A stretch of DNA of 64,000 nucleotides from an uncultured Actinomycetota bacterium. GTDB taxonomy: Bacteria > Actinomycetota > Actinomycetes > CAVWCF01. How positions within the stretch are numbered: the stretch's first letter is position 1; each line of letters starts with the position of its first letter. Location: positions 75,959-139,958 of the forward strand of contig CAWFSE010000001.1 of assembly GCA_963818455.1 (NCBI GenBank), written 5' to 3'. Below, piece by piece: positions 1-24,361 of the stretch. The notes beneath the pieces were generated by a model. That model was not told the origin of the DNA, did no database searches, and was given only the letters and a program-made list of their open reading frames with translations. A program made the translations under genes and the position numbers.

Positions 1-406
1 TCGGCCCGCACCTGATCCGCGGACGGGCCAGCCGGCCGCGGGTGGCCGCCGCGGCGTACCTCGGCATGGGGGTCGCGGTGCTCGCGCTGGCGGCGCCCGT
101 CCTCGCCGGGGCGGGCGCGGGCTACCTGCGTCGTCTACCTGCTGATCGGCGTGCAGGGGCCGCTCACGTCCACCCTGCTGCACGACGAGGTCCCCGACTC
201 CACCCGCAGCACGATGCTGTCGATGGAGTCGCTCGCGCTGATGGCCGGCGGGGTGGCCGCCAGCGCGGGGCTCGGCGCCGCGGCGGCGGCCTTCGGCGTG
301 CCGCCCGTGCTCGTCGCGCTCGCCCTCGCGGCGGCCGCCGCCGCCCTGCTGCTGGTCGGCGCGCGGCCGACCCCGAAGGCCCGAGCCCGCGGCTCAGGAC
401 TCGTAG
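1..406 (+). CDS. MFS-type transporter, C-terminal part (5' end outside the window); frame-disrupted
   Basis: TM-rich translation is spread over ORFs 42..488 and 151..687 (..GVQGPLTSTLLHDEVPDSTRSTMLSMESLALMAGGVAASAGLG..VLVALALAAAAAALLLVG..). There is a frame switch near 125-150. The stop is uncertain (tag 404-406 lies in the third frame). Confidence 0.4.
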
Positions 407-675
407 TCGACGACCACCCGCGCGTCGAGCAGCGGCCGCAGCCAGCCGCCGAACGCCTCGTGCACCGGGTGGCCCTGGTAGGCCTTGAGCTCGTCGACCG
501 ACTCGTGCGTCGTCGTGAGCGCCAGGTCGTACGACACCGGCGAGCCGACGACGTCGAGGCCGACGTGCAGCGAGCGGATCTGCGGGATGTCCGGGGCCAG
601 CGCCTCGAGGCGGGCCTTGGCCTCCTCGCGGTTGGCGGGGTCGGCGAACTTCATCAGCACGACGTGGGTGATCAC
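394..675 (-). CDS. Dabb-family stress-responsive alpha/beta-barrel protein
   Basis: ORF 394..729. VITHVVLMKFADPANREEAKARLEALAPDIPQIRSLHVGLDVVGSPVSYDLALTTTHESVDELKAYQGHPVHEAF is the Dabb pattern. GTG 673-675 follows AGGAGG by 4 nt. Confidence 0.8.
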   Translation of the reverse strand: MITHVVLMKFADPANREEAKARLEALAPDIPQIRSLHVGLDVVGSPVSYDLALTTTHESVDELKAYQGHPVHEAFGGWLRPLLDARVVVDYES

Positions 676-761
676 GAGGCCTCCTAGGGTCGGTCTGCCG
701 AAGTGTAGGGTTGTGGAACGGCGTTTCACTTTTCGCCCCGCGCCCAGCTGAGGAGCCAGCC

Positions 762-1668
762 GTGCCCGACGTCACGATCGTCGAGGTCGCCGCCCGCGAC
801 GGCCTGCAGAACGACCCGGCCGACCTGACCACCGCGCAGAAGGTCGAGCTGATCGAGCGCTGCGTCGACGCGGGCCTCACCCGGCTCGAGGTCGCCTCGT
901 ACGTCAACCCGCAGCGGGTGCCGCGGATGGCCGACGCCGAGGCCGTGGTCGCCGCGCTCCCGCGGCGCGACGGCGTCTCGTACATCGGGCTGGTCCTCAA
1001 CGTGCGCGGCTTCGAGCGCGCGGCGCAGACCGCGATCCACGAGGTCAACTGCGTCGTCGTCTCGTCCGACACCTTCGCCCAGCGCAACCAGGGGATGACC
1101 ACCGAGCAGACCGTCGAGGTGGTCGAGGCCGTCGCGCCGCTGGCCCGCGCGGCCGGGCTCGTGCCGACCGTCACGCTCGCCGCGTCGTTCGGCTGCCCGT
1201 ACGAGGGCGAGGTCCCGATCGCGCGCACCGTCGCGCTGGCCGAGCGGCTGGCCGCCAGCGGCGTCGAGGAGATCGCGCTGGCCGACACCATCGGCGTGGG
1301 CGTCCCGCCCGACGTCCGCCGCCGGGTCGAGGCGGTCCGCGCCGTGACCGGCGACCTGCGGCTGCGCGCGCACTTCCACAACACCCGCAACACCGGCTAC
1401 GCCAACGCCCTGGCCGCCGTCGAGGCGGGCGTGACCGTCCTCGACTCCAGCCTCGGCGGGATCGGCGGCTGCCCGTTCGCCCCCAAGGCCACCGGCAACA
1501 TCGCCACCGAGGACCTCGTCTACCTGCTGGAGCGCTCCGGCTACCGCACCGGCGTCGACTTCGACGCGCTCGTCGGCCGCCAGCGACTGGCTCGGCGAGC
1601 AGGTCGGCCGGCCCACCCCCGCCCTGGTCAGCAAGGCCGGCGGCTTCCCGAAGGGAGACGCGGCGTGA
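762..1668 (+). CDS. HMGL-like lyase (hydroxymethylglutaryl-CoA lyase family TIM barrel); one frameshift
   Basis: GTG 762 follows AGGAG. VPDVTIVEVAARDGLQN...HFHNTRNTGYANALAAVEAGVTVLDSSLGGIGGCPFAPKATGNIATEDLVYLLE is the HMGL-like signature. The C-terminus ..WLGEQVGRPTPALVSKAGGFPKGDAA* is in the +1 frame (an apparent extra C near 1577). Stop 1666-1668 overlaps the next GTG. Confidence 0.85.
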
Positions 1669-3424
1669 GCGCCCCGACCCAGGCCCCCGTCGTCGTACGC
1701 GCGGTCGACGGCCCCGAGCCGGCCGCGGGCCACCTGCGGGTGGCGGCCGTGCAGTTCGCCGCGGGCACCGACGTCGACGACAACCTGGCGACCTGCCTGC
1801 GGATGATCGACGCCGCCGCGGCCGAGGGCGCCCGGGTCATCGTGCTGCCCGAGTTCGCCCACCACGTGTCCTGGTACGACGACCGCGACCACGCCCGGCG
1901 GATGGCGATCACCACCGACGGGCCGTTCGCCGCCGCGATCGGCCAGCGCGCCAAGCAGCACGGCGCCTGGGTGATGCTCAACGCCGTCGTCGCCCGCGCC
2001 GACGGCCGCTCGACCGGCAGCAACCTGCTGTTCTCCCCCGACGGCGAGCTCGTCGCCACCAGCGACAAGCAGGTGCTGATGGGCAGCGAGCGCGACCACA
2101 TCGACGACGCGCTCGAGGCCGGGCCGGTCGTCGAGACGCCGGTGGCCCGCTTCGGCATGTACTCCTGCATGGACGGCGTCATCAACGAGACGCCGCGCGG
2201 CCTGGCGCTGCGCGGGGCGCAGGTGCTGCTCAACTCGCTGAACTCCTTCGCCCGCGACGAGGGCAACCTGCACATCCCGGTGCGGGCGCCGGAGAACCGG
2301 GTCTGGATCGTGGCGGCCAACAAGGTCGGCCCGCTCATCCCGCCGGACCGCATCGAGGCCGTCTCGCAGGCCGTCGGCGTCCCGGTCGAGATGCTGCACG
2401 GCGCCGGCGACAGCCAGGTCGTGGCCCCCGACGGCACCGTGGTGGCCATGGCGCCGCCCACCGGCGAGGCCGTCGTCGTCGCCGACATCGACGTCGCGCT
2501 CGCCGACGACAAGCGCCGCCCGGACGGCACCGACGTGTACGCCGCGCGCCGCCCCTCGCTGTACGCCCCGCTCGCCGAGGCCCCCCGCGGGCGGGTCGAG
2601 CCGGCCGGCGCCGAGCGGCTGCGCGCCGCCCTGGTCCAGCCTGCCGCCGACGGCGAGGCCGCGATCGCCGAGGCCGCCGCGCTGGTCGCCGACGCCGTGG
2701 CGCAGGGCGCCGAGCTGATCGTGCTGCCCGAGCTGTTCTGCTTCGAGGGCGCCTCGGTCGACGTTCCCGCCGCCGAGGCCGCCGCCCGCGGCCGACGCGG
2801 CGATCGCCGCGCTGGCCGCGGCGCTGGCCGGATCGGGCGCCCACGCCGTCACCTCGCTGCCGCGAGGCGCCGCGCACGCGGCCGTGCTCGTCGGCGCCGA
2901 CGGGCGTGGTGGCCACCCAGGGCCAGCTGCACGCCACGGCCCGCCACCCCTGGGCCACCGACCTCGCCGACGACCTGGCCGTCCAGGTGCTGCCCTGGGG
3001 GCGGCTCGCGCTCGTCGTCGGCGACGACGCGGTCTACCCCGAGACGTTCCGGCTCGCGGCCCTCGCCGACGCCGACGTCGTCGCCCTGCCGTTCCACGCC
3101 CAGGAGCCCTGGGAGCTGGAGACCGGCCTGCTCGAGCGGGCGGCCGAGAACCGGGTCAACCTGGCCGCGGCCAGCCGCCCGACGCCGGCCGGGGCCAGCA
3201 TCGCGGTGCCGCTGAGCGGGGAGTTCACGCTGTGGTCGCCGAGCCGCACGAGGCCCTTCGACGGCGTGATCTCGCGGCCCGAGCCGGTGCTCGCCGACGC
3301 CGCCGATCGGGTGACGCTCGTCGACCTCAGCCCGGCCCAGGCGGTCAACCGGATGGTCTCCAAGGGCACCGACCTGGTCGACGGCCGGCCCTGGAACCTG
3401 CTCGACGCCCATCTCACCACCTGA
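1665..3424 (+). CDS. Tandem carbon-nitrogen hydrolase (nitrilase-superfamily) protein, two CN-hydrolase domains; frame-disrupted
   Basis: Starts at GTG 1665 (VSAPTQ..). Domain 1 has the Glu/Lys/Cys triad contexts VIVLPEF, SDKQVLMG and GMYSCMDG. Domain 2 (from ~2620, AELIVLPELF..) runs through frame switches at ~2790 and ~2905 into ORF 2906..3424 (..LALVVGDDAVYPETF..ENRVNLAAAS..). Confidence 0.75.
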
Positions 3425-3511: not shown

Positions 3512-3540
3512 TTGACTCCACCCACACCCCATCGTAGAGT
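3512..3540 (+). promoter_or_regulatory. Sigma70-like promoter of the 3594-10814 operon
   Basis: TTGACT (3512-3517), a 17 nt spacer, then TAGAGT (3535-3540). It is the only non-coding gap (3425-3593) ahead of a tightly packed gene string. Confidence 0.5.
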
Positions 3541-3545
3541 GGGCA

Positions 3546-3575
3546 TTCGTAACAGCGTTCCAGCCGATGGAACGC
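3546..3575. promoter_or_regulatory. Operator-like site (module A)
   Basis: TTCGTAACAGCGTTCC (3546-3561) starts 5 nt after the -10 hexamer. It overlaps the perfect inverted repeat GCGTTCCA-N5-TGGAACGC (3555-3575). It is 15/16 identical to the minus-strand sequence at 19100-19115. Confidence 0.5.
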
Positions 3576-3593
3576 GGGCGAAAGGCAGGGACC

Positions 3594-4408
3594 GTGGGCG
3601 AGACCCTCAGCACCGTCGAGCAGCTCGTCGCCGAGAGCGGCCCGGTCGACGTCACCTGGATCTACGAGCAGTGGCGCGACGAGCTCGCCAGCCTCATGCA
3701 GCTGGTGGCCGACCGCTTCGAGCTCGAGCAGGACCCCTCCACCAACGGCCTCGAGGTCGCCGGCGAGCTGGGCTCCGGCATCCACGGCCAGGTGCAGTGC
3801 TTCGCCGGCCCGGACATCGACTGGATGGTCTACAGCTGGATGGCCGACCCGAAGAACGGGTTCGCCAACCTGCACCTCACCATCTCCCCCGGCGCCCACG
3901 TCGACCTGCCGACCTTCGGCCTGGCGTTCGCCAACTTCGGCATCCGCCCGTGGGGCTTCGTCGACTCGGTGCCGCGCCGCGACCTGACGACCAACCCCGA
4001 CTACCACGACCGCTACTACGGCTCGCTCAACGAGCGCTGGCTGGAGATCCGCCGCGACAACCCCCAGCTCGACTGGTTCACCTCGCCGACCTCGTACATC
4101 CGCGCGGTCACCTCGCCCACCGCGTTCTGCTACTCCGGGCCGATGGAGCAGAAGACCGTCGACATCATCCAGGGCTACGGCCGCGAGCACCTCGAGCGCT
4201 GGATCGGCTGGTGGGACGGCGCCGAGCCGACCCCCGTCGAGGAGCCGCGCCGCGCCTGTCGGCCTACACCGAGGACGCCCGCCGCACGATCGCCGTGCTC
4301 GACCCGGCCAACTCCGTGGCGGTCCGGCTGTTCGGCCAGGACATCTGCGACTCCCTCGTCAGCGCGCTGTGGGGGGCCGACCGCACGCTCCCCCGCGCCG
4401 GCGTCTAG
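3594..4408 (+). CDS. Red chlorophyll catabolite reductase (RCCR)-like / bilin-reductase-fold protein, paralog 1; one frameshift
   Basis: ORF 3567..4556, then a frame switch (~4250) into the tail of ORF 3512..4408 (..SAYTEDARRTIAVLDPANSVAVRLFGQDICDSLVSALWG..*). Blocks DIDWMVYSWMADP, VPRRDLTTNPDYHDRYYG and SPTSYIRAVTSPTAF match my recollection of plant RCCR (ACD2). Paralogous to 6787..7551 and 23418..24296. GTG 3594 (after AAAGGCAGGG) is preferred over ATG 3567. Confidence 0.65.
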
Positions 4409-4428
4409 GCCGCGGAGACCACACGCCG

Positions 4429-5439
4429 ATGACCCGCATGGTGCGTTCGCTCTGGGGCGCCGCGCGCGTGCCCGGCGCGGACGCCGCCGTACGACACCGC
4501 GCACCTGCGGGTCTTCTACCCGGCGCTGCGCGAGGACACCCACGACGAGCGGATGACGGGCGTCATGCGCCCCGACCCCGCGGCCGCGCCCTTCCCGGTG
4601 GCGGTGATCCTGCCCGGCGTCAACGTCGGGCAGGACGCCTACCGCTGGCTCGCGATCCGGCTCGCCGAGGCGGGCATCGCCGCCGTCACGTACGACCTGG
4701 TCGGCGCGCTCACGCCCGGCCTCGTCGGCGTGAGCCCCGGGCCTCGACCTGGCCGCCGTCGCCCCTGACGCGTACGGCACGCCGGCCCACCGCCCCGGCC
4801 ATCCAGGCCGTCCTCGACGGGGTGGCCGCGCTGGCCGCCGAGGGCGCGCTCGGCCGGGCGCCCTCGACCTCGACCGGATCGCGCTCATCGGCCACTCGGC
4901 CGGCGGCACCGTGGTCCTGCAGTCGGCCGCGACCCGGTGGTACCCCGGGCTGCGCGCGGCCGTCGTCTACGGCGCGCACACCCAGCCCGCCCAGGTGCTC
5001 GGCTACGACGCCGGCGCGATCCTGGCCTCCCCGGTCGACGTCCCGCTGCTGCTCATGCACGGCACCGAGGACGGCATCATGGCCGCCTCGCGCGGTGCGC
5101 TACGGCCAGGAGTCCGGCGCCCGCGTCGACCCCGTCGAGCGCACCTACGACGAGGCCACGGCCGCGTGCCCCGACGCCTGGCTGCTGCACCTTCAAGGGC
5201 GCCAACCACTTCGCCATCGGCCACCCGCACGACACCACGTCGGCGCGCGGGTTCCTCGACGGCGAGCCCACCACCGACCCGGCCGCCACCCGCGAGGCCC
5301 TGGCGGCCGTCGTCATCGACTTCCTCGTCCGCGCACCTGCTCCCTGGCGACGAGGCGGCCCACGCGGCTGAGCGACTCGCTGATCTGCCCACCGCCCCGC
5401 CGCACCGAGATCGCCACCGTCCGACGCCGCACCGTCTGA
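4429..5439 (+). CDS. Alpha/beta-fold serine hydrolase, chlorophyllase/dienelactone-hydrolase-like layout; heavily frame-disrupted
   Basis: ATG 4429 has GGAG 11 nt upstream. Reconstructed sequence: ..PYDTAHLRVFYPA..PFPVAVILPGVNVGQDAYRWLAIRLAEAGIAAVTYD..LDRIALIGHSAGGTVVLQSA..VPLLLMHGTEDG..FKGANHFAIGHP.. This needs at least 5 frame switches (ORFs 4369, 4553, 4911, 4937). The GHSAGG nucleophile elbow is followed by Asp and His in order. The 3' end is uncertain (5371 or 5439). Confidence 0.6.
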   Translation: MTRMVRSLWGAARVPGADAAVRHRAPAGLLPGAARGHPRRADDGRHAPRPRGRALPGGGDPARRQRRAGRLPLARDPARRGGHRRRHVRPGRRAHARPRRREPRASTWPPSPLTRTARRPTAPAIQAVLDGVAALAAEGALGRAPSTSTGSRSSATRPAAPWSCSRPRPGGTPGCARPSSTARTPSPPRCSATTPARSWPPRSTSRCCSCTAPRTASWPPRAVRYGQESGARVDPVERTYDEATAACPDAWLLHLQGRQPLRHRPPARHHVGARVPRRRAHHRPGRHPRGPGGRRHRLPRPRTCSLATRRPTRLSDSLICPPPRRTEIATVRRRTV

Positions 5440-5460
5440 CCTCACGAGGAGACACCCCCC

Positions 5461-6790
5461 ATGCTCAAGAACCTCTGGTACGCCGTGGAGTTCAGCCACG
5501 CGGTCACCAACAAGCCGCTGAAGATGCAGTGCCTCGGCCAGCACTTCGTGCTGTGGCGCGACCGCAAGGGCGAGGTCTCCTGCCTGTCCGACCTGTGCGT
5601 GCACCGCGGCGGCTCGCTCGCCGGCGGCTGGCTCACCCCCGACGAGCGACTGCATCGTCTGCCCGTACCACGGCTGGGAGTTCGAGGGCGACGGCGCCTG
5701 CTCGCGCATCCCCGCCCAGCCCGCAGCGCGGCATCCCGAAGAAGGCCCGCGTCGACTCGTACCCGGTCAAGGAGAAGTACGGCCTGGTCTTCGTCTTCCT
5801 CGGCGACCTGCCCGAGGAGGAGCGCCCGCCGATGCCGGACATCCCCGAGCTCGAAGACGAGACCATGGCGCGCGTCTACGGCGAGTACAACTGGAACGTC
5901 AACTACGAGCGGGCCATGGAGAACGCCATGGACCCCTCGCACGCGCCGTACGTCCACGGCAACCGCTTCGGCAACCCCGACAAGCCCGAGGTGGCCGACT
6001 TCGACGTCGTGCTCACCGAGTGGTCCGGCCTGGCCGACATCCCGCTCTACCCGCCGCCCGGCAACCCCAAGGGCGCCTGGGGCAAGCTGCTTCCGCAAGT
6101 CCGACGGGCCCGAGCGGCGAGCCGGTCATGGTCAACACGCGCGCCGGCTTCTTCCTGCCGAACATGAACATCCTGCACGTGCACCTGCCGTTCGGGAACC
6201 TCATCCTGATCGACGCCAACGTGCCGATCGACGAGCACCGCACCCGCTCGCTGTTCATCGGCCTGCGCGACTTCATCAAGGGCAAGTGGGCCGACAAGGA
6301 CGCCATCAAGCGCATCCAGTACATCTTCGAGCAGGACGACGCCGTCATCTCGCTGCAGCGCCCCGAGCTGCTGCCGTTCGACCTGACCGACGAGATGCAC
6401 GTGCGCTCCGACGCGCTGCAGGTCGCCTACCGCCGCCGCCGCAACCAGCTGATCGAGGCCGGCTGGGGCATCGACACCCACCAGATCGTCGGCGACGGCC
6501 CGCGCGACCTCGCCGTGGTCATCCCCTCGCCGGCCCGCAAGAACAACCCCGAGCTGGCCAACGCGTGGGTCCACAAGGAGGTCGAGTCGGCGAAGATCCG
6601 CAGCAAGCGGACCATCGGCGGCGACGCGGCCTTCGAGAAGGTCGAGGGCCGCGCGCTCAGCCTCGGCGAGGGGTCGATCGACGCCGCGCCGCCGGAGCAC
6701 ATGGAGAAGTCCGCCGACGACGTCGAGCTGCCCAACCCGCACGCGGGCAACGGCAACGGCTCGGCGCCCTCGAACGGCGCCGGCGCGTGA
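5461..6790 (+). CDS. Rieske [2Fe-2S] non-heme-iron oxygenase, PAO/Tic55/VanA-like class; frame-disrupted
   Basis: ATG 5461 follows GAGGAG. CVHRGGSL and DCIVCPYHGWEF supply the Rieske ligands. ENAMDPSHAPYVHG fits E-x3-D-x2-H-x4-H. The C-terminal region reads ..IFEQDDAVISLQRPELLP..SDALQVAYRRRRN.. Pieces lie in ORFs 5461.., 4911..6167 and 6020..6790 (at least 3 frame switches). Confidence 0.8.
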
Positions 6791-7551
6791 GCGAGCGGCT
6801 CGCCCACGCGCTCTGCCTGCGCACGATCCAGCGGATCGTCGACCGCTCCGGCGTCAAGGAGGTCTCGGGTGAGGACGGCGGCCCGTTCGCCGTCCTCACC
6901 TCGAAGCTGGGCCCGGAGCCCACGCCCACCGGCGAGGTGCGGATCTGGCTCGGCGACGGCCCGGTCGAGAAGGTCGTCTACGCCGGCATCTGGAACGACG
7001 TCATCGGCCTCGACAGCCACATGGTCTACGCGTTCACCGCGCCCGACAGCGCCGTCCCGCACTTCACGCTGGACTCCGTCTACGGCCACGGCTACTACGC
7101 GTTCCACCTCGACCTCACCCCGCGGGCCGACCTCGGCGCCAACCTCGCCTACATCGACGAGGTGTTCATGCCGCTGCAGGAGATGTACGACGAGACGCGC
7201 GCCCTCGAGGGCCTCACCGAGCCGGCCATCGGCCCGCGCCAGCGGGCGATGATGTCGCCGTGGATGCTGGTCTCCCGCTCCGAGGAGGCCACCTACCGCA
7301 AGCTCGACGCGCCGGTGAACACCTACCTCGACCACTGGTTCTCCCTCGCCGAGGGCGGCGTCTCGCAGGCCACCCTGGACAGCCTCGAGGGGGCCAGCCT
7401 CGCCGAGCGCGACGTGCTCAACCGCGGCAACATCTTCAGCCGCGAGGTCGACGCCGTCTGGGACCAGATCACCCCGCTGATCGGCCGCGAGGACGGCGAG
7501 CTGATCCGCCTCAACCTGCTCGCCAACGAGCTCGTGCAGAAGGAGTCCTAA
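6787..7551 (+). CDS. RCCR-like / bilin-reductase-fold protein, paralog 2 (intact)
   Basis: 254 uninterrupted codons from GTG 6787, which forms a GTGA overlap with the oxygenase stop. ..VPHFTLDSVYGHGYYAFHLDLTPRADLGANLAYIDEVF.. and ..NIFSREVDAVWDQITPLIG.. align with paralogs 1 and 3. Confidence 0.6.
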   Translation: MSERLAHALCLRTIQRIVDRSGVKEVSGEDGGPFAVLTSKLGPEPTPTGEVRIWLGDGPVEKVVYAGIWNDVIGLDSHMVYAFTAPDSAVPHFTLDSVYGHGYYAFHLDLTPRADLGANLAYIDEVFMPLQEMYDETRALEGLTEPAIGPRQRAMMSPWMLVSRSEEATYRKLDAPVNTYLDHWFSLAEGGVSQATLDSLEGASLAERDVLNRGNIFSREVDAVWDQITPLIGREDGELIRLNLLANELVQKES

Positions 7552-8500
7552 GTGGGCGAGCAGCAGCCCAGCGAGTGGCAGAAGAAGATCACCGGCGAGT
7601 GGTACGGCCGGCCGAGCGTCTTCGACCCCGACGGCAACCACGTCGGCTACGAGCGGGTCAGCCGGGCCAGCGTCTTCGAGGACGGCAAGACCCGCTACTG
7701 GATGAAGACCGACCTGTCCGACGTGCGCGGGGCGATCCGCAACCGCTTCGAGCTCGGCGCGCAGTTCGACTTCTCGGTGATCGACAGCGACATCAACCGG
7801 GTCTACATGGGCCCGGACTTCTACGGCACCGGCCAGCCGTACGGCACCTTCGTCGACAGCCACTACTACTCGACCGGGTGGGAGGCCGACCTGCGTCACC
7901 TGGAACCACATCCTCGCCGACGGCGAGACCCAGGTGTACTCCTCGGTGCTGCACGACGGCTGGACCACGTGCGCGGTCTTCAACGGCGTCTACAAGGTCG
8001 CCCAGGACTACGACACCAACCCCGAGACCAAGGCCCGCATCGACGCGTGGATCGACGCCGAGGAGAAGCGCGGCTCGGCGCCGCACGTGCTGCCCACCAA
8101 GCAGACCGGGCGCTGGACCGGCGTCTTCGAGGTCTACGGGCCCGACCAGAAGCTCATCGGCAACACCCTGGTGACCGTCGAGCACGAGCCGCTGTCGCTG
8201 GTGCGCTACCGGCAGACCACCACCTGGGAGGGCGTGGTCAACCGCCGCTACACCGTCGAGCGCACCCGCCACGCCAACAACTGGACGTACGACGGGCCGG
8301 ACCAGTTCGGCAACGCCCGCGCGTACGGCCGCGCGCTCTACGTCTCGCAGCACTTCACCGGCCCGGACGTCTGGAAGATCAAGGGCCGCGAGTTCCTGCT
8401 CGACGAGTCGCTGCAGATGGCCGTGACCTGGATGGCGTACGAGGGCAGCGTGCTCACCTACATCATGCACGGCCTGCTCGAGTGGACGGCTGACGCCTGA
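7552..8500 (+). CDS. Hypothetical protein made of two similar halves (possible tandem beta-barrel/calycin-like repeats); one frameshift
   Basis: GTG 7552 directly follows TAA 7549-7551. A frame switch at ~7890 leads into ORF 7934..8500. Each half opens with G-x-W-x-G (GEWYGRPSVFDPDGN and GRWTGVFEVYGPDQK). I recognised no family. Confidence 0.55.
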
Positions 8501-9373
8501 TGGCGGCGTCCAACGCGGCCGGCCGCGTCGTCGTCGTCACCGGCGTCCACCCGAGGGATCGGACTGCGGCCTGGCCCGCGAGCTGCTCAGCGCGGCGCCC
8601 GGGTCGTCGTCTCGGGCCGCTCGCAGGAGTCGGTCGACAAGGCGCTGGCCGCGCTCGGCGCCGGCGACCGCGCCGTCGGCGTGCCCGCCGACGTCGTCGA
8701 CGCGCCGAGGACCACCAGGCCGCTCTGGGACCGCGCCGTCGAGGCCTTCGGCCGCGTCGACATCTGGGTCAACAACGCCGGCATCTCGCTGGTGCGCAAG
8801 CCGGTGTGGGAGCAGTCGCCCGAAGACCTGCAGGCGATCGTCGACACCAACCTGGTCGGGCGTGATGCTACGGCACGTCGGTCGCCGTGCGCGGGCATGC
8901 TCGCCCAGGGCGGCCGCGGCATGGTCTGGAACATGGAGGGCTTCGGCTCCGGCGGCCAGAAGTCCGACGGGCTGGCGCCGTACGGCTCGACCAAGCGCGC
9001 CGTCACGTACTTCACCGACTGCGTCACCAAGGACCTCGAGGGCATGCCGGTCGGCGTCGCCCACCTGTCGCCCGGCATCGTCGTCACCGACCTGCTGGTC
9101 GACGACTACGAGGGCCAGCCGGAGAAGTTCGAGAAGGCCAAGAAGTTCTTCAACATCCTCGGCGACCAGGTCGAGACGGTCACCCCGTACCTCGCCGACG
9201 GCATCCTCGCCGAGCACAAGTCGGGCGACCGGGTCGCGTGGCTGACCACGCCCAAGGCCAGCGGCCGCTTCTTCAAGCGGTTCGTGCTGCAGCAGAAGCG
9301 CGACCTGTTCGCCGACGTCGCGCTGCCGGCTGCCGGCGGCGACACCGCGGCCGGCAAGCACCGGGCCTCCTAG
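8500..9373 (+). CDS. Short-chain dehydrogenase/reductase, NYC1/NOL (chlorophyll b reductase)-like subtype; frame-disrupted N-terminal half
   Basis: ATG 8500 (TGATG overlap). ..GRVVVVTG-STRGIG..VDIWVNNAGIS..YGSTKRAV (YxxxK)..LSPGIVVTDLL.., then the C-terminal extension AKKFFNILGDQVETVTPYLADGILAEHKSGDRVAWLTTPK. The stretch 8545-8900 needs several compensating frame switches. 8900-9373 is clean (ORF 8681..9373). Confidence 0.75.
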
Positions 9374-9384
9374 CGGAGCGCGCC

Positions 9385-10071
9385 ATGGACAACCCGTACG
9401 GCTACACCGTCCCGCTCGCGCTGTTCGACTACCTCCCGGTCCTGCTGTCCGGGCTGGGCGCGCTGTGGCTGTCGCGCGCCGCGTGGCGGCGCACGCCCGG
9501 CGGTCCGCCCGTACGCGCTGCTCGGCACCGCGTTCGTCGTCGCCGGCGGGGCGTGCAAGGCGACCTGGAAGCTCCTCGTCGCCTCGGGGCGGGCGACTTC
9601 GAGCGGCTCGAGCAGGCGCTGTTCCCGCTGCTGGCCACCGGCTTCTCGCTGCTGGCGTGGTCGCTGCTGTCGGGGGTGCGCGAGCGCGCGATGGCCTGGT
9701 GGCCGTTCGCCGCGGTGTGGGCGCTGGCGGTGATCGGCGCGCTGGCCCAGCGCACCGTGCGGCCGCTGTTCTTCACGACGGTCCTGCTGAGCCTGGCCGT
9801 CACCGCGTACGCGATTCGGCTCGCCCAGAAGGGGCACGAGCGCCCGGCGATCTGGCTGTTCGCGGCGCAGGTCTTCGGATCGCTCACCCTGGTGCCGTTG
9901 CAGCGGCTCGAGCCGACCCTCGCCGTGCAGTGGCTCGAGGAGTCCATCAACACCGTCGCGCAGGGGGCCTTCGCCCTCGGCGCGTGGCGGGTCCTGAGCG
10001 CGCTGTCCGCGCGCGATGCCGTGCCGGCGGGCGACGCGCCCGCCGCGCCTAGGGAGGGAACCCAGGCATGA
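9385..10071 (+). CDS. Integral membrane protein, unknown function
   Basis: ATG 9385 follows GGAG. About 6 hydrophobic segments (..LFDYLPVLLSGLGALWL.., ..FPLLATGFSLLAWSLL.., ..WWPFAAVWALAVIGAL..). A compensated frame slip lies at ~9490-9600. The stop overlaps the next ATG (ATGA at 10068). Confidence 0.6.
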   Translation: MDNPYGYTVPLALFDYLPVLLSGLGALWLSRAAWRRTPGGPPVRAARHRVRRRRRGVQGDLEAPRRLGAGDFERLEQALFPLLATGFSLLAWSLLSGVRERAMAWWPFAAVWALAVIGALAQRTVRPLFFTTVLLSLAVTAYAIRLAQKGHERPAIWLFAAQVFGSLTLVPLQRLEPTLAVQWLEESINTVAQGAFALGAWRVLSALSARDAVPAGDAPAAPREGTQA

Positions 10072-10814
10072 CCGACCAACTCGCGTGGCGCAAGAAGTTC
10101 GGCGTGCTGGCGCCCAGCACCAACTCGATCGTCGAGCCCGACTTCAACCGGATGGGCGTGCCGGGCGTGACCGCGCTGTTCTCGCGCATCCACATCACCG
10201 ACCCCGACCTGTCGAGCGAGGCGCAGCTGGAGAAGCTGCGCGTCCAGCTCGACGAGAACATCGACCGCGCCATCGACCAGGTGTGCACCGCCGAGGTCGA
10301 CTACATGGTGATGGGCATGTCGGCCGAGACGTTCTGGGACGGCAAGGCCGGCAACGACGCGTTCAAGCTGCGGGTCAAGGAGCGCTCCGGCGGCCTCGAC
10401 GTCGCGACCGGCGCCGAGGCGTGCGAGCGGGCGCTGCACAACTTCGGCGTCCGCACGATCGGCGTCGTCACGCCGTACCAGCCCAACGGCGACGCGCAGG
10501 TCATCAAGTTCTTCACCGAGCTCGGCTTCGACGTGGTCAAGCTGATCGGCCTCAAGCGGCCCACCGCGGTGTCGATCGCGCACACCACGCAGGACGAGCT
10601 GCGCGGCGCCCTGCTCGAGCTGAACGAGGAGAAGCCCGACGCCCTCGTCCAGGTCGGCACCAACCTGTCGATGGTCGGCCTGGCCGCCGAGGCCGAGCGC
10701 TGGCTGCACAAGCCCGTCATCGCCATCAACGCCGCCACCTGGTGGATGGCCCTGCGCGACAACGGCATCAACGACACCCTCTACGGCTTCGGCCGCCTCC
10801 TCGAAGAGTTCTAA
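10068..10814 (+). CDS. Asp/Glu/hydantoin-racemase-superfamily protein (maleate isomerase / arylmalonate decarboxylase-like)
   Basis: Intact 248-aa ORF: FGVLAPSTNSIVEPDF..DYMVMGMSAETFW..RTIGVVTPYQP..VQVGTNLSMVG..PVIAINAATWW. The two positions where I recall catalytic Cys in maleate isomerases read Ser (GMSAE) and Gly (VGTNL). Confidence 0.65.
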   Translation: MTDQLAWRKKFGVLAPSTNSIVEPDFNRMGVPGVTALFSRIHITDPDLSSEAQLEKLRVQLDENIDRAIDQVCTAEVDYMVMGMSAETFWDGKAGNDAFKLRVKERSGGLDVATGAEACERALHNFGVRTIGVVTPYQPNGDAQVIKFFTELGFDVVKLIGLKRPTAVSIAHTTQDELRGALLELNEEKPDALVQVGTNLSMVGLAAEAERWLHKPVIAINAATWWMALRDNGINDTLYGFGRLLEEF

Positions 10815-10890
10815 CCCAACGATTGAGGCGGGGGTCACACGTTCGAACGTGTGACCCCCGCCGCTTTCGTGTGACCCGTGCTGTGGACAA
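10813..10890. repeat. Left inverted repeat, containing a perfect 30-nt palindrome (terminator-like hairpin)
   Basis: AACCCAACGATTGAGGCG + GGGGGTCACACGTTCGAACGTGTGACCCCC (10829-10858), then ..CTGTGGACA. It starts at the TAA of the 10068..10814 gene. It matches the reverse complement of 11825-11905. Confidence 0.7.
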
Positions 10891-11913: not shown

Positions 11914-14903
11914 TCAGCCGAGGACGGCGGCTTCGGCGGCGACGGGGAAGGCCCCGGAGCGCTCGACGGCGGCGACCTCGCCGCCGAGGTACGAGCGCAC
12001 GACCTCGGGGTGGTTGCGCACCTCCTGCGGCGTGCCGACGGCGATCACCTGGCCGAGCTCCATGGCGACCATCCGCTCGGCCATCCGGAACAGCAGCGGC
12101 AGGTCGTGCTCGACCACCACGACGGTGGCGTTGAGGTCGCGGCGGATCGCCGTCACCAGCTCGACGAGCTTGTCGCCCTCGGACTGCGCGAGGCCGCCGG
12201 CCGGCTCGTCGAGCAGCAGCAGCTTCGGCTCCAGCGCCAGCATGCAGGTGAGCTCGACCATCCGGCGGGTGCCGGTCGACAGCTCGCCGACGGCCCGGCG
12301 GCTGATCGCCCCGAGCCCCATCACGTCCAGCAGGTCGTCGGCGCGGGCGCGCTTGGCCCGCTCGGCCCGGGGCCAGCCGACGATGCGAGGCGCCGATCCG
12401 CGAGGGCTGCTCGCGCTCGCAGGCCACCATGACGGTCTCGCGCACCGTCATCGTCGGGAACAGCGCGCTGCTCTGGAACGAGCGCACCAGGCCGAGGTGG
12501 GCCCGCTTCTCCGGGGTGAGCGAGGTGATGTCGCGGCCGAGGAAGGCGACCGACCCCTCGTCGGCCTTGGTGAAGCCGGCCACGATCTCGAAGAACGTGG
12601 TCTTGCCGGCGCCGTTCGGGCCGATGATGCCGAGGATCTCGCCGGTGTAGACGTCGAGGTCGACCCCGCGGACGGCCTTGACGCCGCCGAACGAGCGGGC
12701 GATGCCGCGCGCGGACAGCAGCACCTCGGACGAGGCGGGGACCAGCGCCGGCTCGAGCCGGCCGTGCTCGATGAGCTCGAGCCCCGCCGCCGGGGTGTGG
12801 GCCGCCGGGATCTGCTCGGCCGGCGGGCCCAGCGGCGCGCCCGGCGCGGCGGCGCCCGCCGTCGCGGCGGCCAGCGAGGTCAGGTCGATCGAGCTCATCG
12901 CGTCCTCGGCCACGCCCGCCTCGTCGGCCCGCCGCGCCTCGGCCGGGTTGATCCCGCGCATGCGCGCGATCAGGTCGGCGATCCGGTTGCGGAACCACGC
13001 GACGACGCCCGCGAAACCGGCCGGCTGCACCACGATCAGCACCAGCCAGCCGATGGTCGCCACCGCGACGATGATCGTCGGGTCGCCGAGGCTGTTGAGC
13101 CGCAGCAGGCCGGGGATCGTCTGCAGGTAGATCGCGCCGAGGAACGGGCCGATCACCATGGACAGGCCGCCGACGACGCTCTGCGCCACGACGTCGATGG
13201 ACGCCTGGGCGAGGAACTGGTTGGACGTCAGCGTCGACTGCCCGTGGCCGATCACCGCGCCGCCGAGGCCGGCCAGCGCCCCCGCGGCCGCGTACACCTG
13301 CAGCTTGCGCAGCCGGGACGGGACGGCGAACGCCCGCGCGGCGTCCTCGTTGTCGCGCAGCGCCGTGGCCAGCCGGCCGAACGCCCCGCGGCGCAGGTTG
13401 GACGTGAGCCAGAAGCCGAGCGCGAGCACGCCGACGCTGAACAGGAAGTACCCCTTGGCCGTGGAGAAGACCAGCGAGCCGATGATCGGCTTGGCCGGGG
13501 TGACGCCGGTGCCCAGCATCCACTCCTGCCGCAGCAGCCACGAGCCGGTGATGAGCGCGAACGCCAGCGTGCTCACCGCGAGGGCCAGGCCGCGCAGCCG
13601 CAGGGCGGGCACGCCGACCAGCGCGGCCGCGACCGCGCCGACGATGGCCGCGGCCCACAGCCCGAGGTCGAAGTGGCCGGTGGCGTTGACCACCTGCACC
13701 GAGACGGCCGCGCCGATGCCGGCGAACGCGAACTGCCCCAGCGACAGCTGGCCGGCGAGCCCGGTCACCACGAAGACCGACAGGCCGACCAGCGTCGTGC
13801 CGACCAGGGTGGTGAGCACCGCCGCGACGCCGTTGGAGACCGCGAAGGCGAGGTAGGCGAGGTAGCCGACCACGGCCAGCATCGCGAACCGGCCCAGGTT
13901 GCGGATCAGCCAGACCCGCTCGTACGCGCTGGGCATGGCGACGCCCTTGACCTTGCTCCACTCGCCGCCCGGCTGCTGGCGGCGCGACAGCTCCTTCTGG
14001 CGCAGCAGCGCCACGATGATGATGACGCCGACGACGAGCTCGGCGGTGCCGTCGGACGCCGAGCGGGAGCGCACGACGTTCTCGACGATGCCGATGATCA
14101 TCGAGGCGAAGAACGCGATCGGCAGGCTGGTGAGCCGGCCGATCACGGCGCCGGCGAGGCCGAGCAGCAGCAGCGACGGGCCGAGGGAGTCGAAGTCCTG
14201 CACGCCGCGGGTGGGGAAGACGAGCGTCGCCGAGAAGGCCGCGATCGCGCCGGCCAGCGCCCACGACAGCGTGACCATCCGCTTGGCGGAGACCCCGGCC
14301 AGCGAGGCGGCGTCGGGGTTGTCGGCCGCCGCGCGGATCGCCAGGCCGTACCGGCTGCGCTTGAGGAACAGCGTCAGGCCGACCAGCAGGATCGGCGTGA
14401 GGACGATCATCGCGATGTACGGCGGGCCGACGACGGCGCCGGAGACCTCGAAGGACGGCAGCCCCGGCGGCTCGGGGTAGAGGTTGCCGCTGGAGGCCTT
14501 GCTGTTGATGCACCAGGGCGAAGACGAGCAGGAACGTGCCGAGGCCGAGCGTCGCGACCATGCCGAGGACGGTGGGCGCGCCCTTGAGCCGGCGGATGAT
14601 GCCGGCCTCGGTGAGCGCCGACACCGCGGCGGCGGCGGCCAGGCCGATCGGGAAGGCCACCCAGTACGGCACGCCGAGCTGGGTCACGAGCACGCCGACG
14701 ACCGAGGCGCCGAAGACGCCGATCGCGCCGTGGGCGAAGTTGATGAACTTGCTCGCGCGGTAGACCAGGACGAGGCCGACGGCGAGCAGGCCGTACGTGA
14801 GGCCGGTGAACGCCCCGACGAGCAGCCGGCCCGGCGACAGGTCGAAGCCGCCGACGTCGGCGGTGGCCACGGCCTGCAGGGCGGCCTGCACGGCGGCGCT
14901 CAC
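11914..14903 (-). CDS. Branched-chain-amino-acid-type ABC transporter, fused permease(LivH-like)-permease(LivM-like)-ATPase; frame-disrupted
   Basis: GTG 14903 (GTGA overlap with the upstream ATPase stop). ..FINFAHGAIGVFGASVVGVL.. (LivH-like). ORF 11891..14410 has ..GQLSLGQFAFAGIGAAVS.. (LivM-like), then GIIGPNGAGKTTFFEIVAGF (Walker A). ORF 11914..12324 has LLLLDEPAGGLAQSE. No in-frame stop separates the modules. Frame switches at ~14410-14500 and ~12330-12420. Confidence 0.75.
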
Positions 14904-17138: not shown

Positions 17139-17189
17139 GCCGGCCGCGAGGCCCGCCGCGACGGCCGCCCCGAAGACGGCGGCGCCGCG

Positions 17190-17642: not shown

Positions 17643-17686
17643 CGCGACGCGGGCGGCGTACGCGACGTGCGCGTCGAGCGGTCTGG

Positions 17687-23238: not shown

Positions 23239-23417
23239 GGCGCGCACCGTAGGGCACCCGGCACCAGAAGGCAGGTTTGGGCCGGCGCGGACGTGGGCAC
23301 ACCACCGCCGAGGCGTCACACGCGCGGCAGGAGGGGTCCGCAGCCGGGTGAGCCCGCCCGCGCCCGTCGGCCGCCTGAGGTGGCCGGCGGGCGCTTGCGG
23401 CGTCGTGGGCCTGGCGG

Positions 23418-24296: not shown

Positions 24297-24328
24297 GCCG
24301 GAACTCTAGCGGGCCGATCCCGCCGAAT

Positions 24329-24341
24329 GGAACACCGTTCC
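24329..24341. promoter_or_regulatory. Operator-like perfect palindrome GGAAC-ACC-GTTCC (module C)
   Basis: Lies 33-45 nt upstream of ATG 24296. AACACCGTTCCAGC is 13/14 identical to 3551-3564. A minus-strand TAGAGT (24308-24303) sits only 6 nt before the ATG, suggesting a leaderless transcript. Confidence 0.45.
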
Positions 24342-24361
24342 AGCAGCCGGTCTGGCTCGGA

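Follow-up and report, generated by a model that had tools for sequence, protein, structure and literature searches.

All characterised members of the FDBR/RCCR fold act on tetrapyrroles. In plants, RCCR detoxifies RCC (PMC2716323). RCCR has been treated as an outgroup to the bilin reductases, and coproporphyrinogen oxidase has the same fold (PMC10151467). Pre-PcyA FDBRs are known from non-photosynthetic bacteria (PMC10151467, PMC13446030). We found no paper describing a gene cluster such as the one reported here, or a bacterial route of this kind for consuming chlorophyll- or haem-derived pigments, nor did we find a paper or experiment that connects these genes with tetrapyrroles. Here, we show to which families and folds the products of this cluster belong and that the cluster is conserved and modular.

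Results

Organization of the locus. The features of the window (the whole 64-kb stretch of DNA that was analysed) are as follows.

397-675, minus strand: Dabb (dimeric alpha/beta-barrel) small protein, divergent from the cluster (tblastn, 69% identity to L001 and 55% to L003)
759-1664, plus strand: HMG-CoA-lyase-like (HMGL-like) lyase, 68% identical to the L001 orthologue
1664-3424, plus strand: two-domain carbon-nitrogen hydrolase, amidase/nitrilase superfamily (tblastn, 54-72% identity to CN_hydrolase orthologues)
3512-3540, plus strand: sigma70-like promoter match TTGACT-17-TAGAGT (consensus match only)
3594-4408, plus strand: gene A, RCCR-like (FDBR/RCCR superfamily; Pfam RCC_reductase), one frameshift near 4245
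4429-5439, plus strand: gene B, alpha/beta serine hydrolase (GHSAGG), DLH/PETase/chlorophyllase clan (weak Pfam hits)
5461-6790, plus strand: gene C, Rieske non-haem-iron oxygenase, VanA_C type, three frameshifts (Pfam Rieske, 79 bits; VanA_C, 96 bits)
6787-7551, plus strand: gene D, divergent FDBR/RCCR-fold protein, intact, 254 aa (hhalign, AlphaFold, Foldseek)
7552-8500, plus strand: gene E, double beta-barrel, DUF3598/BFA1-like, lipocalin-type (model and Foldseek)
8500-9373, plus strand: gene F, classical SDR with a C-terminal extension of ~70 residues, several frameshifts in 8540-8600 (Pfam adh_short)
9385-10071, plus strand: gene G, polytopic membrane protein, conserved SDR partner (tblastn, 31-36% identity to L001 and L004 proteins)
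10068-10814, plus strand: gene H, Asp/Glu-racemase superfamily, Amdase/maleate-isomerase-like (Pfam Amdase, 53 bits)
10827-10862, plus strand: terminator-like hairpin 3' of gene H, 16 bp with 12 G-C, followed by a T-rich stretch
23418-24296, minus strand: third RCCR-like paralogue, second locus, intact, 292 aa (Pfam RCC_reductase, 55.8 bits)
24365-25860, minus strand: aldehyde dehydrogenase, frameshifted, immediately upstream of the third paralogue (tblastn to the cluster Aldedh proteins and frame model)

We found that the genes from 3594 to 10814 form one tightly packed operon, which lies behind the sigma70-like site and is closed by the strong hairpin. The promoter match is the sole one of its kind between 300 and 11300 (~11 kb), where 0.2 would be expected from shuffles. 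Junctions within the operon are GTGA at 6787, TAAGTG at 7549-7554, TGATG at 8497-8502, and ATGA at 10068, and the other intergenic gaps are 11 to 21 nt. The site and the junctions are as a preliminary description had claimed. That description placed the unit at 3512-9373; the operon is real, but the functional unit is larger, reaching the terminator at 10862 and having conserved partners upstream. These are the HMG-CoA-lyase-like gene and the two-domain CN-hydrolase gene. The L001 orthologue of the former reaches 290.7 bits against a cut-off of 246 for NCBIfam NF004283, which models an HMG-CoA lyase subfamily. The start of the latter overlaps the HMGL stop (GTGA); it has a frameshift near 2803, and two stretches of it match Pfam CN_hydrolase. 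The Dabb protein is also a conserved neighbour (15/64 related loci). At its left end the window starts mid-cluster, where relatives have further pathway genes.

Between 3594 and 9373 the reading frame changes more than 12 times, as might be expected if the locus were a decaying pseudogene array with genuine frameshifts. We consider this extremely improbable. The frame changes are spread through the entire 64-kb window, and a strong codon-position GC bias persists through each of them. A sister MAG (L007, 96.7% identical) has A, B, and the SDR gene intact and is broken elsewhere, and intact proteins at 96-97% identity are known for A, D, and E. The frameshifts across the locus are assembly errors.

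FDBR/RCCR-fold proteins. Gene A, whose GTG start at 3594 agrees with homologue N-termini (tblastn), scores 40.3 bits on Pfam RCC_reductase (cut-off, 24.9 bits). When the A-family profile was compared with the PDB, the best match was Arabidopsis RCCR (E 7.5e-16, near full length), followed by HY2, PebB, and PebA. We found an invariant Asp-Pro in the A family that aligns with the DP motif of bilin reductases, a motif holding a catalytic Asp. The position of the acidic RCCR residue Glu154 is Ala in this family. Gene A and the third paralogue are 29% identical (E 6e-33).

Gene D matched no Pfam family, and its pairwise similarity to the other RCCR-like paralogues was weak (E 0.001). An hhalign profile comparison with the A family gave a probability of 97.1% and an E value of 5.8e-11. 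Judged from these profiles, gene D is a remote homologue of gene A, visible only by profile comparison. In its AlphaFold model (pLDDT, 95.5), Foldseek placed RCCR at the top, followed by PcyA, PebB, HY2, and PebA, and nearly all of the 45 PDB matches at E < 1e-3 were RCCR or ferredoxin-dependent bilin reductases. The Asp equivalent to that of the A-family DP motif is invariant in the D family too, which comprises 1457 clusters.

Three RCCR paralogues had been proposed from the outset. The link to RCCR holds, through Pfam for two paralogues, through the PDB profile for the A family, and through the model match for D. The products of 3594-4408 and 23418-24296 are above the RCC_reductase threshold and carry the shared blocks (VPRRDL.../VPRSDL... 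and SPTSYIRAV.../VYMRAFNSPVA); that of 6787-7551 has no Pfam hit and is not the source of these pairs.

Other products of the operon. All of the motifs quoted earlier for genes C (CVH...CPYH and ENAMDPSHAPYVH), B (GHSAGG), and F (AKKFFNILGDQVETVTPYLADGI...VAWLTTPK) were found in the three-frame translation, and the Rieske ligands, the serine hydrolase, and the SDR stand. The plant-like family labels given to them fared differently. No PaO domain was hit in gene C or in the 28 orthologues tested, all 28 of which have Rieske plus VanA_C. Gene C is not a member of the PAO family, and "PAO-like" fails at the family level. The closest solved relatives are SxtT/SxtDIOX, NdmA/B, and DdmC. The nearest relatives of gene C carry out hydroxylation or demethylation of small N-heterocycles.

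In the window, gene B is frameshifted at five or more places; the L007 copy is intact in one frame. It gave weak Pfam hits to Hydrolase_4, PETase, and DLH. The likeness to chlorophyllase is marginal: orthologues score at most 25.7 bits on Pfam Chlorophyllase, in one orthologue just under the cut-off (26), and the hydrolases of the window's own lineage gave no hit. For gene F, only core residues 5-198 matched PDB SDRs. A provisional Arabidopsis NOL sequence, for which the protein collection has no exact match, is 36% identical to it over 257 residues, the C-terminal extension included, and the suggested NYC1/NOL likeness, which depends on this provisional sequence, is tentative. SDR-MFS fusion proteins also exist.

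Gene E has one frameshift near 7893 and an intact 315-aa homologue at 97% identity; its model (pLDDT, 94.8) matched BFA1 (5yvf) and DUF3598 (2o62) in Foldseek (E 5e-9 to 1e-7). Gene G matched no Pfam family. Gene H is 81% identical to its L001 orthologue, with sub-threshold hits to EutA and arylmalonate decarboxylase. Since SDR, alpha/beta-hydrolase, and Rieske proteins are common in catabolic clusters, the tetrapyrrole reading leans on the RCCR/FDBR-fold proteins.

Conservation of the cluster. A D-type gene is present in 430 species genomes from Actinomycetota, Chloroflexota, Gammaproteobacteria, and others. Nocardioides cavernae, Mumia, Catellatospora, and Microbulbifer are among the carriers of the cluster. 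Across 64 full-size loci, D was found in 64, E in 58, the SDR in 55, the Rieske gene in 52, the hydrolase in 50, Amdase in 49, and A and membrane protein G in 48 each. The order A-Hyd-Rieske-D-E-SDR is common to Actinomycetota, Chloroflexota, and delta-type MAGs. We found that A, Hyd, and Rieske are jointly present in 48 loci and jointly absent in 12 (60/64 all-or-none), and all 12 are from Gammaproteobacteria. Lineage L001/L002 keeps A and the hydrolase and is missing the Rieske gene. In Microbulbifer loci without a Rieske gene, a rubredoxin fused to an NAD(P)H reductase adjoins D and E, which fits a one-electron donor for an FDBR-type protein.

Loci of Actinomycetota and Gammaproteobacteria hold a CN-hydrolase, an isochorismatase-family amidase, Amdase-family proteins, ICL/methylisocitrate-lyase-like and HMG-CoA-lyase proteins, a family III CoA-transferase, an ACAD-like monooxygenase with a flavin reductase, a FAD_binding_3 monooxygenase, and two Aldedh proteins. 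Those of Chloroflexota hold an allantoinase/hydantoinase-like cyclic amidohydrolase and a homoaconitase-type hydratase. Transporters and catabolic-type regulators (GntR/UTRA and IclR) are found alongside. These data support a cluster that is catabolic in character and strongly conserved.

No Mg-dechelatase, haem oxygenase, ferredoxin, or Rieske reductase was recognisable in the annotated operon and the annotated parts of related loci. Pre-PcyA enzymes of heterotrophic bacteria offer a precedent (PMC10151467, PMC13446030) for another role, in which the RCCR/FDBR-like proteins might synthesise the bilin cofactor of a sensor or pigment protein. We think this very improbable, as neither haem oxygenase, globin, phytochrome, nor lyase was seen in annotated loci, A is nearest to RCCR by sequence, and the gene context is catabolic.

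Discussion

We tentatively propose that a conserved, uncharacterised bacterial pathway for degrading a tetrapyrrole-derived substrate has this operon at its core. The pyrrole rings of the substrate would leave as imides and substituted maleates. We infer that the substrate is most likely a tetrapyrrole-derived pigment, such as a catabolite of chlorophyll, a bilin, or another product of this kind. The reaction steps and electron donors are putative throughout.

In this proposal, A (an RCCR-like reductase), B (an esterase-type hydrolase), and C (a Rieske monooxygenase) would make up an upper module, gained and lost together, that prepares the pigment by ester removal, oxygenation, and ferredoxin-type reduction of the reactive product. 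Plant PPH/MES16, PAO/TIC55, and RCCR are formal analogues of the roles of B, C, and A. The universal core would be D (a second FDBR/RCCR-fold reductase), E (a double lipocalin-like barrel), F (the SDR), and G (its membrane partner), and here the linear pigment may be bound and further reduced or rearranged near the membrane. A lower module, partly outside the window, would comprise two-component and single-component flavin monooxygenases, two aldehyde dehydrogenases, the CN-hydrolase, isochorismatase-type or cyclic amidohydrolases, maleate-isomerase-like H, aconitase-type hydratases, ICL-type and HMG-CoA-lyase-type lyases, and a CoA-transferase. It would cut the chain into pyrrole units, open imides or lactams with release of ammonia, and cleave substituted maleates to pyruvate and short acids.

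The genes of the lower module fit a route in which five-membered imides or lactams are opened and 2,3-disubstituted maleates are then hydrated and cleaved. Maleimides of this type, haematinic acid and methyl vinyl maleimide, are known to arise when chlorophyll and haem are broken down chemically (PMC7318184, PMC10343206). The amidases, cyclic amidohydrolases, and flavin reductases would also be compatible with pyrimidine- or hydantoin-like substrates.

Counting against the tetrapyrrole reading are the oxygenase without a PaO domain, the Ala at RCCR Glu154, the missing Rieske gene in L001/L002, the marginal chlorophyllase and tentative NOL likenesses, and the lack of a recognisable Mg-dechelatase, haem oxygenase, ferredoxin, or Rieske reductase in the annotated operon and annotated parts of related loci. 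The cluster might instead degrade a non-tetrapyrrole N-heterocycle of the hydantoin, pyrimidine, pyridone, indole, or alkaloid type, its RCCR/FDBR-fold proteins having been recruited to another conjugated substrate. The unkept Glu154 would agree with this, saxitoxin, methylxanthines, and dicamba are the substrates of the solved relatives nearest to the Rieske enzyme, and several neighbours (allantoinase/hydantoinase-like, RutB/BiuH-like, CN-hydrolase, flavin reductase, ACAD-like monooxygenase, and alpha/beta hydrolase) are reminiscent of the Rut, hydantoin, nicotinate, and indole pathways. We nevertheless regard it as unlikely, while giving it real weight. We know of no member of the FDBR/RCCR/CPOX fold with a non-tetrapyrrole substrate, and the cluster core holds two to three FDBR/RCCR paralogues, with D the most conserved single gene. 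No cluster protein scored high enough to count as an equivalog in any known heterocycle pathway, and homoaconitase-type hydratases and ICL-/HMG-CoA-lyase-type lyases are foreign to the Rut, hydantoin, and purine routes.

The core genes could also detoxify phototoxic pigment catabolites taken up from decaying phototrophs with no assimilation, the flanking catabolic genes being unrelated. This would match the role of plant RCCR in RCC detoxification (PMC2716323), and the lower-module genes do vary between phyla. Their functions recur across phyla despite differing families, however; Actinomycetota, Chloroflexota, and Gammaproteobacteria all have them in tight linkage and same-strand orientation; and transporters and GntR/UTRA and IclR regulators accompany the cluster. 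We judge detoxification alone improbable.

Of the tetrapyrrole ring-opening operon first described, the RCCR link and a conserved catabolic operon remain, and the PAO, chlorophyllase, and NOL assignments are weak or unsupported. Under the tetrapyrrole reading, opening of the chlorophyll macrocycle by the operon is possible, and the broader set of genes suggests, past ring opening itself, a complete degradation of the pyrrole units. Hosts are found in soil, lakes, activated sludge, and the sea, all of them places where photosynthetic pigments are plentiful. If this reading is true, the cluster, which is present in a soil actinobacterium and widely conserved, would let bacteria consume pigments derived from chlorophyll or haem.

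Organization of the operon and origin of its frameshifts

The sole σ70-like match between positions 300 and 11300 (TTGACT-17-TAGAGT; 0.2 expected from shuffles) lies upstream of eight plus-strand genes that run from 3594 to 10814. We found four junctions between these genes (GTGA at 6787, TAAGTG at 7549-7554, TGATG at 8497-8502, and ATGA at 10068), and the remaining intergenic gaps are 11 to 21 nt. A preliminary description had reported a single-promoter, tightly packed operon with these same junctions, and our results confirm that observation. Rfam and tRNA scans of the operon gave no match.

Features of the operon and its flanks
759-1664, upstream of the operon, HMG-CoA-lyase-type gene
1664-3424, upstream of the operon, two-domain CN-hydrolase
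3512-3540, plus strand, σ70-like match
3594-4408, plus strand, gene A, RCCR-like protein
4429-5439, plus strand, gene B, hydrolase
5461-6790, plus strand, gene C, Rieske oxygenase
6787-7551, plus strand, gene D, divergent FDBR/RCCR-fold protein
7552-8500, plus strand, gene E, double-barrel protein
8500-9373, plus strand, gene F, SDR
9385-10071, plus strand, gene G, membrane protein
10068-10814, plus strand, gene H, Amdase-type protein
10827-10862, operon end, G+C-rich hairpin of 16 bp

The window has a G+C content of 70 to 79%, and its reading frame changes every few hundred bases over the whole of 1-64000. Such changes are typical of indel errors in long-read metagenome assemblies. We compared the operon with that of a sister genome, MAG MFD00032.bin.2.210 (L007), which is 96.7% identical across 17.5 kb. 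In the sister genome A, the hydrolase, and the SDR are each in a single frame, and E and the last gene are broken at other positions. Intact proteins 96 to 97% identical to A, D, and E are also present in other data sets. We concluded from this pattern that the frameshifts are assembly errors and not decay. That the genes are pseudogenes is scarcely conceivable, and pseudogenization of the locus is ruled out by the intact genes and differently placed breaks of the sister genome. Gene calls here therefore need frameshift-tolerant handling, and our analyses were made on stitched translations and intact orthologues. The motifs quoted in the preliminary description (CVH...CPYH, ENAMDPSHAPYVH, GHSAGG, and the SDR C-terminal block) were all present in a three-frame translation.

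RCCR-like proteins A and D and the third paralogue

To our knowledge, no protein fold apart from the FDBR/RCCR type reduces open tetrapyrroles, and we know of no other fold-specific clue in this cluster than the presence of such proteins, which act on open tetrapyrroles. We found that A scored 40.3 bits on Pfam RCC_reductase (PF06405; cut-off, 24.9) and that a third paralogue elsewhere in the window, 29% identical to A, scored 55.8 bits against the same cut-off. When the A-family profile was compared with the PDB, Arabidopsis RCCR was the top match (E, 7.5e-16; residues 31-258 against 23-269, about 230 residues), followed by HY2, PebB, and PebA. The alignment of A to RCCR, HY2, and PebB is near full length, and the alignment of the A-family profile with Arabidopsis RCCR reproduces the plant RCCR sequence blocks that had been cited in the preliminary description. 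The two peptide pairs given there as shared blocks belong to 3594-4408 and 23418-24296, and neither is found in 6787-7551. Judged by the Pfam test, A belongs to the RCCR family.

The D protein of the window has no Pfam match, and one D orthologue reached only 16.8 bits on RCC_reductase (cut-off, 24.9). The D-family profile found nothing significant in the PDB by sequence; its relationship is visible only by fold and by profile-profile comparison. The D-family profile matched the A-family profile with 97.1% probability (E, 5.8e-11; 198 columns). The predicted model of D (pLDDT, 95.5) had RCCR as its best match (E, 2e-10; TM, about 0.68) and also matched PcyA, PebB, HY2, PebA, and PebS (TM-scores, 0.6 to 0.78). 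We concluded that D belongs to the RCCR/FDBR superfamily only. The earlier assignment of both operon genes to RCCR thus stood for A, but for D it held at the level of the superfamily and not of the family. The D type comprises 1457 sequence clusters. Database names for these proteins are "oxidoreductase," "hypothetical," and "RCC reductase."

We located Arabidopsis RCCR Glu154 and Asp291 in the HMMER alignment by counting residues of the crystal chain; we take these two to be the residues that, according to proposals in the structural literature, lie on either side of the reduced double bond. By this count, both the A and the D family have an Asp without exception where RCCR has Asp291, and the A family has Ala at the position of Glu154 and of the acidic residue of PebB. 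An Asp-Pro that is invariant in the A family lines up with the EKDP motif of HY2 and PebB and, by the same count, with Asp291 of RCCR; the Asp of D that aligns with the Asp of this motif is invariant across the D family.

A and the third paralogue are like plant RCCR/ACD2 (PDB 2zxk and 3aga) in passing the family threshold, and D is like it in fold. They differ in that they are bacterial, cytoplasmic, and operon encoded, with two to three divergent paralogues per genome, and in that the A family retains an Asp-Pro motif that is characteristic of true bilin reductases and absent from RCCR. Their partner oxygenase is not of the PAO family. Earlier work mentioned RCCR-like genes of cyanobacteria and "RCCR-related" sequences of bacteria only as curiosities or as an outgroup (PMC2716323, PMC10151467).

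The fold and the DP motif are shared with the bilin reductases PcyA, PebA/B, PebS, and HY2, and pre-PcyA proteins are likewise found in heterotrophic, non-photosynthetic bacteria (PMC10151467). A role in bilin biosynthesis would be in keeping with this likeness, but it is highly improbable and we rejected it because no haem oxygenase, globin, or photoreceptor (chromoprotein) context was seen in the annotated parts of the loci. In contrast to FDBRs and pre-PcyA proteins, the proteins here stay below threshold on Pfam Fe_bilin_red (14 bits; cut-off, 31), and their context is catabolic instead of biosynthetic.

Second RCCR-like locus and other regions of the window

The third RCCR-like gene is surrounded by a second locus at 21474-28642.

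Features of the second locus
21474-22451, minus strand, NAD-dependent epimerase/3beta-HSD-like gene
about 22452-23240, minus strand, SDR
23418-24296, minus strand, third RCCR-like gene
24365-25860, minus strand, aldehyde dehydrogenase
25884-27532, divergent, thiamine-diphosphate enzyme
27533-28642, divergent, EamA transporter

Several other regions of the window were characterized. Translations of 11917-18944 (minus strand) indicate a large ABC transporter operon of the branched-chain-amino-acid type, with two ATPases, fused permeases, and a binding protein. It is convergent with the pigment-like operon and meets its end; in relatives, different ABC systems occupy this position. The 2.4 kb or so at 28643-31000 is without the usual codon-position G+C bias and is called noncoding by the frame model; its open reading frames resemble secreted or cell surface proteins rich in Thr, Ala, and Gly. 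A tRNA-Lys (UUU) gene lies at 49540-49614 on the minus strand, and beside it, within 48261-49614, are frameshifted transposase-like open reading frames with a helix-turn-helix and an integrase-core-like segment. By tblastn and inspection, 55554-57961 (minus strand) holds a second SDR, 35% identical to the core of F and lacking its C-terminal extension, followed by an AMP-binding (acyl-CoA-synthetase-like) gene.

The Rieske oxygenase and the remaining operon proteins

Gene C scored 79 bits on Pfam Rieske and contains the domain pair Rieske plus VanA_C, with the Rieske motif CVH...CPYH and the mononuclear iron motif D-x2-H-x4-H (ENAMDPSHAPYVH). VanA_C was found in C and in all of 28 orthologues, and the PaO domain (PF08417) had no match at an E of ≤1 in any of them. 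The nearest solved relatives are SxtT/SxtDIOX, NdmA/B, and DdmC (E, 6e-36 to 1e-22). C shares its domain pair with the alpha3 Rieske monooxygenases SxtT/GxtA, NdmA/B, DdmC, and VanA but differs from them in a C-terminal extension of about 80 to 100 residues, in genomic context, and in having no reductase partner encoded nearby. By its domain content, C falls outside the PAO family. The Rieske and mono-iron motifs of the "PAO-like" oxygenase were real, but its link to PAO was not upheld.

B is a serine hydrolase of the DLH/PETase/chlorophyllase clan. On Pfam Chlorophyllase (PF07224; cut-off, 26), the best score was 25.7 bits, from a Nonomuraea orthologue; a Nocardioides orthologue scored 19.4 bits, and the hydrolase of the window lineage had no match. 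The PDB matches of B are weak and are to polyester hydrolases and dienelactone hydrolases. The description of B as chlorophyllase-like did not hold up on these scores, and we could not confidently call B a chlorophyllase.

The model of E (pLDDT, 94.8) contains two consecutive lipocalin-like beta-barrels and matches the BFA1/DUF3598 structures 5yvf and 2o62 (E, 5e-9 to 1e-7); on Pfam DUF3598_N it scored 15.6 bits, below threshold. G belongs to no known Pfam family. H belongs to the Amdase/maleate-isomerase superfamily (Pfam Amdase, 53 bits; cut-off, 25.9) and scored far below the cut-offs of the NCBIfam EutA and arylmalonate decarboxylase models.

F has a classical SDR core (adh_short, 101 to 136 bits; PDB core matches of 93 bits or less) and, as had been described, a C-terminal extension, which no PDB SDR covers. 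By BLASTP, F was 36% identical over 257 residues, through the extension, to an unverified Arabidopsis NOL sequence (E, 7e-45). That exact sequence was absent from the protein collection. In an exhaustive search with F, the top 150 matches were unnamed or generically named bacterial representatives only, and no plant name appeared among the ten of them looked up. Because this NOL sequence was unconfirmed and the top matches carried no informative names, the link of F to NOL stays a lead. Some Acidobacteria, e.g., Pyrinomonadaceae, have relatives of F fused to the C terminus of an MFS transporter (P0309, P0320, P0322, and P0387; about 700 aa), an arrangement that parallels the conserved pair of SDR and membrane protein G. 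These fusions suggest that the SDR acts where its substrate is taken up.

Taken together, these results support the earlier interpretation in part: A stands as an RCCR family member and D as a superfamily member only, but neither the PAO family nor a confident chlorophyllase is represented.

Conservation, distribution, and gene content of related clusters

We found a D-type gene in 430 genomes in a pattern scan of one genome per species; the plasmid collection yielded no such gene. Hosts include Actinomycetota (Nocardioides, Mumia, Catellatospora, and Nanopelagicales), Chloroflexota (Anaerolineae and Promineifilaceae), Gammaproteobacteria (Microbulbifer, Halieaceae, and other Pseudomonadales), delta-type MAGs, and one cyanobacterial MAG. 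The conservation of the neighborhood suggested for checking in the preliminary description was borne out: the order A-hydrolase-Rieske-D-E-SDR recurs across phyla.

Occurrence of cluster genes in the 64 loci with full flanks
D, 64/64
E, 58/64
SDR, 55/64
Rieske, 52/64
Hydrolase, 50/64
Amdase, 49/64
A, 48/64
Membrane protein G, 48/64
Aldedh, 45/64
ACAD-like monooxygenase, 39/64
FAD monooxygenase, 36/64
CN-hydrolase, 28/64

A, the hydrolase, and the Rieske gene were all present in 48 of these loci, all absent in 12 (every one from Gammaproteobacteria), and mixed in 4. We concluded that the hydrolase, the Rieske enzyme, and the RCCR-like protein behave as one evolutionary module. One metagenomic lineage outside the 64-locus set has A and the hydrolase without a Rieske gene. 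On a 7-kb contig of a Leptolyngbyaceae MAG (L078), two VanA_C-type Rieske genes, a G-like membrane protein gene, and a D-type gene lie side by side; if the contig is correctly binned, the D/Rieske pairing therefore occurs also in a phototroph.

Nocardioides also encodes, directly upstream of A, two aldehyde dehydrogenases and a methylisocitrate-lyase-like protein together with two monooxygenases, one ACAD-like with a flavin reductase and one of the FAD type. Further contigs from actinobacteria contribute an isochorismatase-type amidase, a second Amdase protein, and a family III CoA-transferase, for which the best match, below threshold, is succinate-glutarate transferase. Chloroflexota replace some genes and carry an allantoinase/hydantoinase-like amidohydrolase, a homoaconitase-type hydratase, a GntR/UTRA regulator, DUF3891, and three more proteins without a Pfam family, which we read, from their E-like N termini only, as putative barrel proteins. 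An extra conserved block in Chloroflexota and delta-type clusters (L037, 1192-6706 and 14127-15968; L063; L083; L071; L052; L064) comprises the regulator, a 150-aa protein, DUF3891, two proteins of about 300 aa with E-like N termini and no Pfam family, the amidohydrolase, and a homoaconitase-type hydratase pair; none of this block is in the window. In Microbulbifer (L005, 2701-4152), a rubredoxin fused to a NorW-like NAD(P)H reductase adjoins the E-type and SDR genes of a cluster without a Rieske gene. We regard this fusion as a candidate donor of single electrons to D, the FDBR-fold protein. The TonB receptor adjoining the Microbulbifer cluster shows no specific affiliation with the haem or B12 receptor types.

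Comparison with known pathways and a proposed route

Family and fold assignments, conservation, and modularity are established by the data. Whether the substrate of the cluster is tetrapyrrole derived is close to an even call, which for us falls slightly on the doubtful side; the basis for this reading is the presence of two RCCR/FDBR-type proteins in the operon and a third nearby, with D the most conserved gene of the cluster. Within the tetrapyrrole reading, we lean modestly toward chlorophyll catabolites for clusters that have the upper module (B, C, and A).

The cluster shares four broad enzyme classes with the plant PAO/phyllobilin pathway (NYC1/NOL, PPH or chlorophyllase, PAO, RCCR, TIC55, and MES16): an SDR, an alpha/beta hydrolase, a Rieske monooxygenase, and an RCCR-type reductase. 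It differs in its Rieske enzyme, of the VanA_C type without PaO, and in its hydrolase, which is no confident chlorophyllase. As in the preliminary description, we recognized no SGR-type dechelatase in the cluster. Beyond the steps of the plant pathway, the cluster extends into genes for complete breakdown, a process not found in plants. Detoxification without assimilation appears improbable to us.

The flanks share enzyme superfamilies with the maleamate and dimethylmaleate branches of bacterial nicotinate degradation (NicD/NicF/NicE; dimethylmalate dehydratase and lyase of E. barkeri) and with the cyclic-imide pathway (imidase and half-amidase), namely, isochorismatase-type amidase, maleate-isomerase-type protein, alpha/beta hydrolase, aconitase-type hydratase, ICL/PEP-mutase-type lyase, and cyclic amidohydrolase. 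In contrast to those routes, no protein reaches a named-equivalog threshold and there is no NicX-type ring-cleaving dioxygenase. We take this likeness to reflect superfamily logic and general knowledge of these routes, not orthology. A different nitrogen heterocycle as the substrate, which fits the relatives of the Rieske enzyme and the amidohydrolases but leaves the fold-specific proteins and the lyase set unexplained, is in our view rather unlikely.

On the tetrapyrrole reading, the upper module would de-esterify, oxygenate, and then reduce the pigment. The RCCR/FDBR-type proteins may reduce a linear tetrapyrrole in a ferredoxin-dependent manner, of which the Microbulbifer fusion near D/E is the one indirect hint. 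The core (D, E, F, and G) would handle the linear molecule at the membrane. The lower module would cut it into pyrrole units, hydrolyze imides or lactams with release of ammonia, and then isomerize, hydrate, and cleave substituted maleates. As a hypothetical example, haematinic acid, a haem- or chlorophyll-derived imide, would yield methyl-carboxyethyl-maleate and, after hydration, pyruvate and glutarate. The formation of such maleimides by chemical breakdown of chlorophyll and haem is documented (PMC7318184, PMC10343206). We tentatively propose, as a possibility that we rate below the tetrapyrrole origin of the substrate itself, a widespread bacterial pathway for the uptake and complete mineralization of chlorophyll-derived or other linear tetrapyrroles, with an RCCR-type reductase, a non-PAO Rieske enzyme, and an esterase on top, a new FDBR-fold clade in the core, and pyrroles leaving as maleimide/maleate-type intermediates.

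In the searchable papers on bacterial RCCR/Rieske clusters, pre-PcyA, bilin and phyllobilin catabolism, maleimides, and maleamate pathways, this cluster is nowhere described. The riboflavin catabolism described in PMC12746152 depends on different enzymes, and an RCCR-like protein is absent from it.

Implications

Chlorophyll turnover is on the order of a billion tonnes per year. Breakdown in plants ends with phyllobilins; from algae and cyanobacteria, pigments and bilins are released. We found no pathway in the searchable literature that accounts for the final mineralization of these tetrapyrroles in soil and water. Because the cluster is built around the only fold known to us to reduce open tetrapyrroles and is conserved in several phyla, it offers concrete genes, cultured host strains, and testable reactions for the disposal of tetrapyrroles by bacteria.

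With the D type, the bilin-reductase superfamily gains a new and large clade. The cluster also offers a possible bacterial origin of plant RCCR, which may descend from such catabolic enzymes; bacterial descent has reportedly been argued likewise for the SGR dechelatase. Plant RCCR has no algal homologues (PMC2716323, PMC9306834). If the substrate is not a tetrapyrrole, the cluster would provide the first member of this fold with a different chemistry.
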